Shown: positions 60,143 to 64,000 of the stretch, one piece after another
Layout of the letters: every line of letters begins with the position of its first letter
Position numbering within the stretch: the stretch's first letter is position 1
Source of the DNA: a virus
Direction: 5' to 3' (one strand)
IMG/VR virus record: IMGVR_UViG_3300034107_000725
Span: 129,991 to 193,990 of that record
DNA length: 64,000 nt
Program-made: the position numbers and the translations under genes
Notes under the pieces: model-generated
The model's database searches: none
Seen by the model: only the letters and a program-made list of their open reading frames with translations
Told to the model about the DNA's origin: nothing

Positions 60143-60391
60143 ATGACACCGGTTGAACGATGGTACGTGACTGGATGTGGCAATGAATGGCGGCTGACGT
60201 CCGGCAACGCCAAAGTCGTCGTTTGGCTGGACAACGATGAGGAAACTTACCTGGCAAGGATTCTCAAGCACGGTGGGAAGTGGCTTAAGGCCGGTAAGTT
60301 TAGCGACCTCAAAGAGGCTAAAGTCTTTTGCATGGCAGAACTAGGAAAACTTGGCTCATGCTTGGAGGTGAGTGATGACAGCTTTGCGTGA
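60143..60391 (+). CDS. Hypothetical protein
   Basis: 82 aa; AGAAAGG RBS. Confidence 0.6.
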   Translation: MTPVERWYVTGCGNEWRLTSGNAKVVVWLDNDEETYLARILKHGGKWLKAGKFSDLKEAKVFCMAELGKLGSCLEVSDDSFA

Positions 60392-60956
60392 CATGACGAT
60401 TGAGGAGTTCTGCAACAAAAATGAAGCCTGTCAAGAGGGTCGAGAATGGGCTTTGACGAACTGCAAAACCATGCAGGAGGTGTGGCATACCGTTAGTGAA
60501 CACAGTTGGCTCATGTGGATCGCTATTCAGACTGGTGCGGTAACCGACAAAAATCTACGGCGTTTTGCTGTGTTTTGTTGTCGAGATGTCTGGCATCTTT
60601 TAACGGACGAACGTAGCCGTAATGCTGTCGAAGTTGCGGAGCGATACATTGTCAACCCTCGCAACAACAGCACAAACAACACAGAGCTAGCCAGAGCGTG
60701 TCTATCTGCGGAATCTGTACTCTCTGGGCTGCCTGTTGGCAAACATCGGGCAGCCGCAAATGCTGCAGTTGCGGTAACCTACAGTCCAAGATATGCGGTA
60801 GCACACACGGAATTTCTTACAACACAAGCTGCCGCTGCGGACGGTCCGAGGGGCGTTGAAAATATTGTAAGAGGCGATATGGCTCGCAAACGTAAGGCAG
60901 ATTGGCTCAGGGCCAATGTAACACCCGACTTTACCGAGAAAAGAAGGTCCAAATGA
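60375..60956 (+). CDS. Imm5-like helical protein, paralog A
   Basis: LRRFAVFCCRDVWHLLTDERSRNAVEVAERY followed by Ala-rich helices. Confidence 0.5.
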   Translation: MTALRDMTIEEFCNKNEACQEGREWALTNCKTMQEVWHTVSEHSWLMWIAIQTGAVTDKNLRRFAVFCCRDVWHLLTDERSRNAVEVAERYIVNPRNNSTNNTELARACLSAESVLSGLPVGKHRAAANAAVAVTYSPRYAVAHTEFLTTQAAAADGPRGVENIVRGDMARKRKADWLRANVTPDFTEKRRSK

Positions 60957-61534
60957 GTGACATGACAGTAAAAGAGTTTTTTGACTTTCACCGCCTCCCG
61001 GATGAAGTGCCTGAACATGACAAAGATAGCTACCTTGAGACAAAGGAAAGTTACGACAAATTCCGCAAATGGGCCTTGGACCGCGACAAGACCATGCAGG
61101 AGTGCTGGCTAAACGTATCTAACTTTGGATGGCTTCTCTGTATGGCTGTTCATCCTGGCGTGCTCACTGCCAAAGAGAAGGCACAGTTTGGGCTGTATTG
61201 CTGCGAGATGGTCCGACACCACTTGACCGATTTTCGAGCCATCGCGGCCATCTCGTTATATCGTCGGTGGGTCGAGAGCGGGATCAGCGAGGAGGAACTG
61301 GAGCTGGCCGGGTGGGCGGCAGGTAATTTTTGGGAGGAAGAAGATAATCATGCGGCGACCTGGGCTGGCTGCACCGTGGCAGCGGCTGTTAACTACTCCC
61401 ACCGCAGTAAGGACGCTGCTCCCGATATTCTGGAGGTGGCCGATGCTGCCACCAAAGCAGGCGTAAACCCGGTTCGGCTGATTCACTGGTTTCGCGTCCG
61501 CACTAAACCCAATTTCACCAAGAAAGAAGGCTGA
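60953..61534 (+). CDS. Imm5-like helical protein, paralog B
   Basis: DMTVKEF..., KTMQECW...WLL.MA, AQFGLYCCEMVRHHLTDFRAIAAI: aligns with the upstream gene. Confidence 0.5.
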   Translation: MSDMTVKEFFDFHRLPDEVPEHDKDSYLETKESYDKFRKWALDRDKTMQECWLNVSNFGWLLCMAVHPGVLTAKEKAQFGLYCCEMVRHHLTDFRAIAAISLYRRWVESGISEEELELAGWAAGNFWEEEDNHAATWAGCTVAAAVNYSHRSKDAAPDILEVADAATKAGVNPVRLIHWFRVRTKPNFTKKEG

Positions 61535-61535
61535 T

Positions 61536-62372
61536 ATGAGTTCTCAAGGTTCCAACGCGATTCAGGCGTTTGTCTTCCCACAGACAAAGCAGAAGGTTCG
61601 AGTATTCGTTGACCCAGACGGCACATTGTGGTTTGTGGCCGCCGATGTCTGTCGGGAGTTGGGGTATGCAAAAGTTTGGAATGCCATCGAGCGGCACTGT
61701 AAACCAGAGGGTACTGCGAAACGCAGTATCCTTACAGATGGAGGCACGCAAGAGGTTACGGTCATCAACGAGGCCAACCTCTACCGTTTGATTATTCGGT
61801 CAAATGCTCCCAACGCCGAGCCGTTTCAAGATTGGGTGAGCGAAGAAGTTTTGCCGTCGATCCGCAAAACTGGATCATACGGGCACAAACCCCAGCAACA
61901 GCTTGATCTGACCAACCTGGATCCTGACGTGATGCTTGATGCGTTGATCAACGTCCAGCAGCTTCGGAAAGAGGAAAAGGCCAAACTGCTTGAGCTTCAG
62001 GAAGAAAAGGCAAAGCTGGAAGTCAGGCTCGAAGCCCAGACACCCGTGGTCAATGCTATCAAGCGGCTGGCAGCCGCTGAGGGTTCAATCTGCATTCAAC
62101 AAGCAGCCAAGGCACTGAAGATGCGACCAACGGACCTGACAGACCACATGCTCAATTGCGGTTGGCTTTACATGCGACCACCATCCACCCGCAAGATTGC
62201 CTACCAGGAAAAAATCAAACAGAAATGGATGGTCTGCCACCAGGACACGAAGTCCTTATCTGGCGGTCGCGAACTGCTCTATGTTCAGTACAAAATCACA
62301 GGTCTGGGTTTGCTGCGACTGGCACGCGAACTCGACTTCGAAATTGACAAGATTGAAAGTAACGACGACTAA
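61536..62372 (+). CDS. Phage antirepressor, BRO-N + KilAC/ANT C-terminal domain
   Basis: WFVAADVCRELGY...INEANLYRLIIRS..PNAEPFQDWVSEEVLPSIRKTGSY (BRO-N), coiled coil, EGSICIQQAAKAL...GWLY...KITGLG (KilAC). Confidence 0.92.
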   Translation: MSSQGSNAIQAFVFPQTKQKVRVFVDPDGTLWFVAADVCRELGYAKVWNAIERHCKPEGTAKRSILTDGGTQEVTVINEANLYRLIIRSNAPNAEPFQDWVSEEVLPSIRKTGSYGHKPQQQLDLTNLDPDVMLDALINVQQLRKEEKAKLLELQEEKAKLEVRLEAQTPVVNAIKRLAAAEGSICIQQAAKALKMRPTDLTDHMLNCGWLYMRPPSTRKIAYQEKIKQKWMVCHQDTKSLSGGRELLYVQYKITGLGLLRLARELDFEIDKIESNDD

Positions 62373-62392
62373 CCCAAAGAAAGAAGGTTGAG

Positions 62393-62749
62393 ATGAGAAC
62401 CCTTGAACATGCGGCAAAGCGACTGGCACTTGTCGCGGCAAACACAACTGCGGATCTGATTGGCTTTGACGGTGCCGAAGAGTTAGACGAGGCAATCGAC
62501 CATGTCAAACGACTGCTGATGCCTGAGACCGACCATGGCTGGGAGGTGTTGGTCCTGGTGGATGCGGACAACCACCTGAACATCTACATCACCAACACGA
62601 ACAGCTCCGAGATCTATGAGTGTGACACCGGGCAAGGTGATCGCGGGTCCGGCGAAGAGCTGGCTCTGCGATACACCACCGACGTGATAGAGGATGAAGC
62701 GGACAACAACCCGTATTTTGAAGACGACGACTCCCAGGAAGAAGGCTGA
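62393..62749 (+). CDS. Hypothetical acidic protein
   Basis: Flanked by junction motifs on both sides. Confidence 0.6.
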   Translation: MRTLEHAAKRLALVAANTTADLIGFDGAEELDEAIDHVKRLLMPETDHGWEVLVLVDADNHLNIYITNTNSSEIYECDTGQGDRGSGEELALRYTTDVIEDEADNNPYFEDDDSQEEG

Positions 62750-62750
62750 G

Positions 62751-62990
62751 ATGAACCTACAAGATCTTGCAAATAAGTATGCCTACGCAATTTTGACATG
62801 TGACGGCAGCACGAGTGATATCAACTCTGTGTTGCAATCATGGTCAGAAGGCAAGGAACGCGACGACGTCATGGTGTGGAACAGGTTTGAAGACTGTGAT
62901 CCGGAAGAACTTGAGTGCGAGCACACGGCTCTTGCTGATGCCTTTCTTAGGTTCCACGAAGAGGCAACTAACTCCAAGAAAGAAGGTTGA
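62751..62990 (+). CDS. Hypothetical protein
   Basis: ATG 62751 right after a junction motif. Confidence 0.6.
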   Translation: MNLQDLANKYAYAILTCDGSTSDINSVLQSWSEGKERDDVMVWNRFEDCDPEELECEHTALADAFLRFHEEATNSKKEG

Positions 62991-62991
62991 G

Positions 62992-63270
62992 ATGAGAACA
63001 AAATCAGAGTTCATAAACCGTGTCAAAGAATACGGCTTTCTACCCTACGAGAAACCATGCAAGTCAGTCGGGAACAATCACGATTTCTGTGCCTTCTCTG
63101 CGATCACTGTTATGAAAGATGGACTAGACGCCATCATCCTATGGCAGAATCGCGAAGTACTCACATCAGGTGATGTCGAGAACGATGATCTTGTAACAAT
63201 CATCGGCGGTTTTGAGAAACACACACAGTTGCTGATTCAAATCCTATGGGGGATCGATAGCGACGACTAA
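62992..63270 (+). CDS. Hypothetical protein
   Basis: ATG 62992 right after a junction motif; its stop lies inside the left 82-bp arm. Confidence 0.6.
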   Translation: MRTKSEFINRVKEYGFLPYEKPCKSVGNNHDFCAFSAITVMKDGLDAIILWQNREVLTSGDVENDDLVTIIGGFEKHTQLLIQILWGIDSDD

Positions 63271-63645
63271 AATCTACAACATAAAGTTCCTAATTTTAGG
63301 AACTTTATGTTATTATATCTCTTACAGAGATATATAAAGCAGGGGATAGATCCCCCTGCTGTTTGGTAAGCAAGGTAAGTTGGGCAAGATCAAGGCCTAG
63401 TCAAAAAGATTGGTTCAGCCGTGGCTTTGACTGTGTTAGTAATAGCCGCCGCGGTGGGTATTACTAACATCGTCAAGGTCACAAAACAACAGCGATAACC
63501 ACAAGTTTTACTAGCTGCCTATCTTGCCCTGTATATCTAAAATCAAGGGCTTTATGGCCCTGATTTATATATCTCTGTAAGAGATATAATAACATAAAGT
63601 TCCTAAAATTAGGAACTTTATGTTGTAGGTTTTAGTCGTCGCTAT
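63257..63645. repeat. Large fold-back element: 82-bp inverted arms (1 mismatch) with nested palindromes
   Basis: 63257-63338 is the reverse complement of 63564-63645 except at 63273/63629. Each arm holds AACATAAAGTTCCTAA-TT-TTAGGAACTTTATGTT (63278-63311). Central stem TGTTAGTAATA/TATTACTAACA lies on the same axis. Confidence 0.95.
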
Positions 63646-63686
63646 GAACTCTGATTTTGTTCTCATCTCAACCTTCTTTCTTTGGG

Positions 63687-64000
63687 TTAGTCGTCGTTAC
63701 TTTCAATCTCGTCGATCTCGACTTTGAGTTCACTGGCCAGTCGCAGCAAACCCGAGCCTGTGATTTTGTACTGGACATAGAGCAGTTCGCGACCGCCAGA
63801 TAAGGACTTCGTGTCCTGGTGGCAGACCATCCATTTCTGTTTGATTTTTTTCCTGGTAGGCAATCTTGCGGGTGGACGGTGGACGCATGTAAAGCCAACT
63901 GGTCCTGAACATGTGGTTCGTCAGGTCCGTTGGTCGCATCTTCAGTGCCTTGGCTGCTTGTTGAATGTTAACCGCGCCCTCGGAGGCTGCCAGCCGTTTG
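63687..64000 (-). pseudogene. Second, diverged antirepressor (KilAC) copy, frameshifted; runs off the window
   Basis: Reverse complement aligns to 62060-62372 with scattered substitutions. T7 at 63845-63851 versus A6 at 62209-62214 shifts the frame to a stop at 63730. Confidence 0.75.

Follow-up and report, generated by a model that had tools for sequence, protein, structure and literature searches.

The stretch of DNA analyzed here, referred to below as the window, is 64,000 nucleotides (nt) long and forms the last 64 kb of a single virus contig of 193,990 bp (IMG/VR record IMGVR_UViG_3300034107_000725). Close to its right end lies a palindromic element of 353 bp (63275 to 63627) with a GC content of 37.7%, compared with 50.1% for the genome. 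The element consists of two perfect 64-bp inverted arms (63275-63338 and 63564-63627) placed around an asymmetric core of 225 bp. Each arm is composed of TAC, a 34-bp hairpin site, designated S, and a further 27 nt, and thus holds an AT-rich palindrome of 21 bp in addition to S. The left S site (63278-63311, centre TT) and the right S site (63591-63624, centre AA in the window) have perfect 16-nt arms and a 2-nt centre (16-2-16), and they lie inverted and 313 bp apart. The left AT-rich palindrome (63314-63334) has a 9-3-9 layout that is conserved in an alignment of units from five lineages, and its partner occupies 63568-63588. A TATAAT box, a candidate −10 element on the plus strand (63585-63590), stands immediately before the right S site. 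Two side hairpins are also present: hp1 (63338-63360), with a GC-rich stem and a T/A-rich tail on the minus strand, and hp2 (63540-63566), whose difference from hp1 reveals which way the core is oriented. On the axis of the element, a near-palindrome with a 16-bp stem (63421-63482) is found; the stem is perfect in two other contigs, L002 and L004, and carries two substitutions in the window.

Measured more widely, the inverted repeat extends to arms of 130 nt that are 85% identical (63257-63386 and 63516-63645), and the predicted single-stranded DNA fold reaches −126.9 kcal/mol, compared with −34.7 ± 4.2 kcal/mol for shuffled sequences (z = −22). A preliminary description, made from the letters of the window, had reported a palindrome of about 390 bp with a distinct centre and with different side hairpins at the positions given above, and our results confirmed both. 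Two of its further readings survived in part. Inverted arms do exist, but the outer 21 nt of the 82-bp arms proposed there belong to a foreign tail, leaving real arms that are 64 bp long and perfect. Likewise, the 34-bp palindromes are present at 63278-63311 and 63591-63624, but they are built as 16-2-16 with TT and AA centres rather than as 13-8-13 with an asymmetric spacer.

The S motif does not occur anywhere else in the whole genome, and the exact S pattern had no match when searched in IMG/VR. No Rfam family reached its gathering score in the element, the best being the rimP leader at 40 versus 47 bits, and no small open reading frame (ORF) with a convincing start was seen in the core. 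Read on either strand, the central palindrome yields mirrored hydrophobic peptides of 25 to 30 amino acids (aa) (63421-63498, plus strand; 63390-63482, minus strand); neither has a convincing ribosome-binding site, and they are probably a by-product of the palindrome. A mobile element of the miniature inverted-repeat transposable type was considered and ruled out, as the element occupies one syntenic locus, also in relatives, and is flanked by neither a target duplication nor a direct repeat.

The position of the element in the genome depends on how the contig is closed. IMG/VR classes the contig as linear, with a CheckV completeness of 94%. Its first 127 nt are an exact copy of 63480-63606 (plus strand), and divergence between the two copies begins inside the centre of the 34-bp site. 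Assemblers of this kind typically leave such an exact repeat of 127 nt at a contig start where a node of the de Bruijn graph (k=127) has two exits, and this would be the case here, at a node shared by two genomes. One exit leads to the contig start and the first gene of the early block, while the other leads into the final 394 nt of the window (63607-64000), referred to here as the tail. Three sets of evidence bear on which exit belongs to this phage. First, L002, an independent contig from an ENA assembly of a differently labelled sample ("marine metagenome"), carries the antirepressor, three small ORFs, the element, and the contig-start genes in that order, at 98 to 99% identity to this phage. 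Second, Logan contigs were surveyed in four lake-water runs from four studies (X1, X5, X8, and X11); these contigs are assembled at k=31 and unable to cross the 64-bp perfect arms. In all four runs, the left flank leads into the left 34-bp site, and a contig joins the right 34-bp site directly to the contig-start sequence (10,126 nt in X1, 8,393 nt in X11, and 914 nt in X8; the length for X5 is unlisted). A single unbranched unitig of 285 nt (63309-63593) also spans the palindrome axis in the four runs, as judged from contigs rather than raw reads. Third, the seam lies internally in contigs of four distant relatives (L005, L006, L007, and L012), where gene order across it is kept: homologues of genes from about 58.4 to 59.5 kb stand upstream, and homologues of the contig-start genes (804-1598, 1600-2133, Mre11, and Rad50, among others) stand downstream. 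Based on L002, the junctions in the four runs, and the synteny of the seam in relatives, the phage map forms a closed circle of 193,469 bp, and the contig is chimeric over its last 394 nt.

In each of 24 runs found, at most 0.85 of the sampled words were present, approximately the stretch minus the tail. Positions 63684-64000 had zero cover in the four runs, a weak result since the 95% threshold also excludes an L004-like copy of 93% identity; exclusion of the tail therefore rests on the positive junctions between S and the contig start. Three paralogues of a protein of about 200 aa (phrog_18326, function unknown) flank both sides of the seam (60372-60956, 60902-61534, and L001:188-811), an arrangement that fits circular closure. 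When 61000-64000 was compared with GenBank phages by blastn, short antirepressor matches alone were returned.

The tail (63607-64000), which has no place in the map of this genome, holds a minus-strand copy of a BRO-N/KilAC antirepressor gene, frameshifted and represented by its 3′ end. Its identity is 88.1% to the window's own antirepressor end, taken as the reverse complement, and 93.0% to L004, a JGI contig. Relative to the window's own antirepressor flank, the tail lacks the genes at 62393-62990. L004 carries an element identical to that of L002 at 353 of 353 positions, followed by an inverted antirepressor end, the part that is 93.0% identical to the tail; on its other side are approximately 22 nt resembling the reverse complement of the contig-start flank and then a reverse transcriptase gene. 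The contig of the window is thus joined to an L004-like phage through the shared element, and the tail-type junction is real DNA, but of another lineage. A simple fold-back artefact was ruled out, as the tail is just 88% identical to the left flank. The preliminary description had argued against a simple assembly fold-back on the divergence of the two flanks, and this part stands, but the inverted flank is nevertheless an assembly chimera. Its pair of convergent antirepressor genes, however, does not exist in this genome: the right-hand copy is the 394-nt foreign tail, and the real flanking genes both point rightward.

Several features of the L004 and tail lineages were recorded alongside these comparisons. 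In L004, the gene beside the element (L004:1590-2897, plus strand) encodes a 435-aa reverse transcriptase, with its 3′ end facing the element, in the place held in this phage by the first early genes. It matches RVT_1 (E = 2e-26), and its best PADLOC matches are a generic reverse transcriptase, a Cas1-associated reverse transcriptase, and UG17; a locus search with this protein alone gave no useful match. In the window, a 33-nt direct repeat of 94% identity (62368-62400 and 62967-62999) spans gene ends and starts; the lineages of the tail and L004 lack the DNA between its copies (genes 62393-62749 and 62751-62990), as though recombination between the repeats had removed it. A frameshift affects the inverted antirepressor copy of the tail (63687-63999, minus strand) as well as that of L004 (3617-4127, minus strand), with a run of 7 T in the tail and 6 T in the window's own copy. 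In the L004/tail lineage the antirepressor is probably a pseudogene or dependent on a frameshift.

In the closed map, both genes flanking the element read rightward. The last gene of the rightward train (62992-63270, plus strand) ends 7 nt before the left S site and encodes a 92-aa protein of no known family, with no match in Pfam or PHROG. The genome is tightly packed, with 56 gaps of at least 40 nt and a non-coding total of 7.7 kb; its largest non-coding gap, of approximately 396 nt, is made up of the element and 39 nt from the start of the contig. No 8-mer recurs in at least five intergenic gaps of the genome. Approximately 200 of 220 ORFs are on the plus strand, and the element marks the seam at which a variable accessory array, with the antirepressor in it, ends and the early/replication block begins. 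A switch in GC skew, raised as a check in the preliminary description, does fall here, in that cumulative skew is lowest at the contig start and rises to a maximum at the contig end.

A position of this kind recalls the ends of virion DNA. In one-directional phage genomes of the T7, T5, and N4 types, the physical ends usually lie at such a seam, and the element, as the largest non-coding gap with a unique sequence, could be a packaging signal, either a pac site or the boundary of a terminal repeat, at which the terminase begins to cut concatemers. IMG/VR, however, found no end repeats in the 193,990-bp contig, and in relatives the paired units are spaced anywhere from 313 to 1274 nt apart, so that we regard a packaging signal as improbable.

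A true genome end, whether a hairpin telomere, a concatemer junction, or a fold-back terminus, had been put forward as well, with N15 telRL and poxvirus junctions as models. The element shares with these a large palindrome and an imperfectly paired interior, here with a near-perfect centre of 46 bp, and inversion of the core between lineages is reminiscent of flip-flop ends. No protelomerase was detected when the genome was searched with PF16684 (ResT/TelK), a search whose control worked. DNA is continuous across the axis, as the 285-nt unitig is unbranched in four runs and L002 bridges the element into unrelated flanks. The real flanks are not inverted repeats of one another: the right one, the contig start, is unrelated to the left, and the inverted flank is the foreign tail. 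Relatives, too, keep the seam inside long contigs. Neither the telomere nor the poxvirus-type junction is thus supported, and a genome end of this kind appears very improbable.

The orientation of the core was then compared among lineages. The antirepressor-type flank adjoins the hp1 side of the core in the window and L002 but the hp2 side in L004 and the tail, so that the core lies in opposite orientations between lineages. At k=127, each lineage (window, L002, and L004) assembled with the element in a single orientation. A second example of a flip was not found, L005 and L011 having the same orientation. The idea of a flip-flop inversion centre accordingly holds insofar as both core orientations exist between lineages, but no invertase gene accompanies them: a search of the genome for serine invertases with PF00239 (Resolvase) gave no match, and its control worked. 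Within each paired lineage the arms are near-identical even though sequences differ between lineages, which suggests concerted evolution by recombination between arms, and the same recombination would invert the core. Since no invertase is encoded and each lineage assembles in a single orientation, occasional homologous recombination between the arms would be the economical explanation of the flip.

Alternatively, the S sites could be crossover sites of the hix or gix kind, with an invertase flipping the core at high frequency as a programmed switch. Like the sites of Hin, Gin, and Cin, they are inverted palindromes with an asymmetric 2-bp centre, TT and AA occurring in inverted order 313 bp apart, and the segment between them is found in both orientations, opposite in L004 and the tail to that in the window and L002. 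In another lineage, L025, each site is the exact reverse complement of the other, and a single internal asymmetry marks them. Unlike hix and gix sites, which are 12-2-12, the sites here are 16-2-16, and orientation differs between lineages, each of them assembled in a single form. Neither Resolvase nor Phage_integrase domains are encoded, no switched gene or promoter is evident, and flipping of so nearly symmetric an element would change nothing obvious. The centre of the right S site is AA in the internal copy of the window, L002, L004, and run X1, but TT, giving the direct order, at the contig start and in X5, X8, and X11, and both centres are CT in L006. Arms of 64 to 82 bp would, moreover, suffice for homologous recombination. 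A programmed switch is therefore quite improbable in our estimation.

The proposed likeness to loxP and FRT fared no better. As in those sites, 34 bp and inverted arms are seen; unlike them, the spacer is palindromic except for 2 nt, and no tyrosine recombinase is encoded, given that a search of the genome with PF00589 (Phage_integrase) had no match at E ≤ 0.1 while the control was positive in 14 of 14 genomes, although a host enzyme is possible. Single hairpins similar to S in L003, L027, and L028, which are unrelated AT-rich bacterial DNA, were set aside as chance look-alikes, and because such hairpins occur in unrelated bacteria, the partial resemblance to FRT is most likely due to chance as well.

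The seam was then retrieved from other lineages through a conserved gene for a 264-aa protein located two genes downstream of the element, in which the protein is 35 to 43% identical. Homologous S units were found at the same seam in four other lineages, so that a similar element does exist in relatives; they are paired and inverted in three and single in one. In L025, two 30-bp near-palindromes lie 331 nt apart in arms of 64 nt (97%), with 253 nt of non-coding DNA between them. In L006, two 32-bp palindromes are 435 nt apart in arms of 46 nt (93%), separated by a hairpin and an ORF of 67 aa (L006:8591-8794), which has a good ribosome-binding site and belongs to no known family. L005 and L011 carry two perfect 32-bp palindromes 1274 nt apart in arms of 76 nt (98.7%), with approximately 1.2 kb of genes between them, and L007 to L010 carry one unit. 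Pattern searches for the L005-type and L006-type sites returned no further contigs, and a locus search with the Mre11 homologue alone gave no useful match.

Alignment of nine units from the five lineages revealed an invariant AC|A before the palindrome and an invariant T|ATT.TA after it, with the second small palindrome always on the inner side of the unit. The stems of S differ between lineages yet remain paired, a pattern of covariation. Together, an invariant base and covarying stems suggest a hairpin or cruciform whose base is read in a sequence-specific manner, and they point to S as an old unit under selection. Conservation is not restricted to the hairpins, as the entire 353-bp element is identical between L002 and L004 at all 353 positions while the flanks are 91.5% identical (differing by approximately 8.5%).

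Transcription signals were next evaluated across the genome. On the plus strand, 8 of the 31 occurrences of TA[GT]AAT fall in non-coding DNA, where 1.2 would be expected, an enrichment of about six-fold, and 5 of these 8 lie 14 to 82 nt before a gene (with the two copies of the element counted once). From the TATAAT at 63585-63590 it is 82 nt to the ATG at position 188 of the genome, where the first early/replication gene starts. TAGAAT stands at the equivalent place in relatives, and in three lineages a gene starts 22 to 48 nt past the right S site. Ordinary terminators of this genome consist of GC stems followed by runs of 6 to 11 T, and CTTTTTT and TTTTTTC mark the canonical ones genome-wide; these strings and TA[GT]AAT should be usable for annotating the transcription units of this phage. 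A terminator consensus scan of the element returned 10 sites compared with 0.9 expected, none of them with the genome-typical run of 6 to 11 T. In L025, an extended −10-like box (TGGTACAAT) was noted just past the right hairpin site (L025:5440-5620), followed by approximately 170 nt of structured non-coding sequence that ends in a GC stem and a T run; this stretch is a candidate small RNA or leader.

These signals form the substance of the principal rival to a DNA-level role, namely that the element is a transcription boundary acting in RNA. On a circular or concatemeric template, its hairpins would halt the long rightward transcription, or insulate it, ahead of renewed entry into the early genes, and would also serve as stabilizing 3′ or 5′ RNA hairpins, with an early promoter inside the right arm and no role in replication. 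The location at the seam of a one-directional genome and the 10 terminator-like sites are what such a boundary would lead one to expect. The left unit, in addition, always follows a plus-strand gene and is itself followed by a GC hairpin in L006, L007, and the window; a −10-like box stands ahead of the right S site, with a gene start following closely; and covarying stems fit RNA hairpins equally well. Several properties, however, exceed or contradict what a boundary needs. The hairpins of the element lack the T runs of the phage's own terminators, perfect palindromes of 15 to 16 bp set in long, near-identical inverted arms go beyond the requirements of a terminator, the whole 353 bp is conserved beyond adjacent coding DNA, and a −10 box in the left arm would fire antisense. 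A transcription boundary is therefore possible, if rather doubtful. The absence of T runs at the hairpins and the conservation of the 353 bp beyond that of neighbouring coding DNA led us to favour a function at the level of DNA over that of a plain terminator.

A candidate protein partner for such a function is the 264-aa protein used to retrieve the relatives, a Rep/IS91-like zinc protein that is encoded 0.6 to 2.6 kb downstream of the element in every lineage (L001:804-1598 here). Its AlphaFold model has a pLDDT of 78, and the best fold match is the Rep protein ORF119 of SIRV1 (Z = 7.5; root mean square deviation, 4.7 Å; 111 aligned residues), followed by several other HUH Rep domains at Z = 5.3 to 6.4 amid generic ferredoxin-like folds. 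Look-alike clusters in the ESM Atlas carry Rep_1 and Zn_Tnp_IS91, and 1 of 50 remote relatives touches Rep_1 (E = 0.0015). Neither the 264-aa protein nor one remote relative had a match in phage or plasmid collections, or by sequence in the PDB. Across 59 relatives, four Cys and one Arg are the sole invariant residues. At most, the model and these comparisons suggest a divergent or domesticated Rep-like DNA binder.

Enzymes of the IS91 family act at CTTG/GTTC beside subterminal palindromes (PMC13181058), and CTTG and/or GTTC is present in every S site, which we regard as a weak lead. The element thus shares with rolling-circle origins and with the oriIS/terIS ends of IS91 (PMC13181058) hairpin palindromes that contain CTTG/GTTC and, in all lineages, a nearby Rep/IS91-like zinc gene. 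It departs from them in the paired, inverted arrangement of its units and in the 193-kb size of the genome, and the protein departs from their enzymes as set out below.

The reading that we favour, at a probability of roughly 40%, is that the element is a putative cis-acting control region at the DNA level, in which an origin of replication and the first early promoter would be coupled. The origin reading draws on the position at the head of the replication block, on AT-rich DNA that should melt readily, and on hairpin sites that are unique in the genome. In the proposed mechanism, a conserved phage protein, for which the 264-aa zinc protein is the best candidate, would land on S in its hairpin or cruciform form; the AT-rich palindromes and the core would supply easily melted DNA; and transcription into the replication block would begin from the TATAAT that precedes the right S site, in the manner of promoter-plus-unwinding-element origins of T4. 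Ordinary homologous recombination between the arms would occasionally flip the core, which would explain the opposite orientation in L004 and the tail without a dedicated recombinase.

Precedent for such a combined region is available. In phage T4, oriF and oriG each combine an A+T-rich unwinding element with a promoter whose −10 box is of the sigma70 type (PMC3016281), so that promoter and origin can be one region. The element resembles these origins in being a short, AT-rich, non-coding region with a candidate sigma70-type −10 box beside replication and recombination genes, here homologues of Mre11 and Rad50. It differs in having two long inverted hairpin units, in occurring at one site per genome, at the seam, where T4 has several origins, and in that no MotA-type box or R-loop is known here. 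A further palindromic precedent is more distant. The oriL and oriS origins of herpes simplex virus are palindromic, with inverted initiator sites and an AT-rich centre, and lie next to replication genes. The element bears no more than a resemblance to them, in its palindromic layout and its place beside replication genes; its centre is GC-rich, and no homologous initiator is present.

A number of observations weigh against an origin served by the 264-aa protein. The best fold score, Z = 7.5, is within the range of common ferredoxin-like arrangements; the protein has no Pfam match, and no family-wide HUH or catalytic Tyr motif was found in its 59 relatives. CTTG and GTTC are 4-mers, and the lineages that share them are not independent of one another. 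The closeness of the 264-aa gene to the element is inseparable from general synteny. As for the promoter, a sigma70 scan of the element returned 0 sites, and no −35 box of the sigma70 type accompanies the TATAAT. The pattern of GC skew is equally well explained by transcription in one direction. The DNA between units is not conserved, being 225 to 253 nt of non-coding sequence here and in L025, a 67-aa ORF in L006, and approximately 1.2 kb of genes in L005, and one lineage has a single unit, which is a poor fit to an origin of fixed geometry.

A broader proposal would extend the origin reading to the group as a whole: large uncultured lake phages (approximately 170 to 195 kb) would start replication at an inverted hairpin pair that is recognized by a domesticated Rep/IS91-type zinc protein lacking the usual HUH centre, and the same pair would serve as a flippable boundary, prone to recombination, for the exchange of accessory cassettes. 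We consider this extension speculative and, taken as a whole, unlikely.

Overall, the analysis removes a false lead, as the locus holds no telomere, no lox-like site, and no convergent pair of antirepressor genes. It also illustrates that a shared, highly conserved palindrome can lead an assembler to fuse the genomes of two related phages at the end of a contig. For the biology of these viruses, the seam element, conserved throughout the lineage and built of covarying hairpins, offers the best candidate for an origin and early control region in a large group of uncultured phages, and it is paired with a concrete candidate binding protein that is accessible in vitro without a cultured host.

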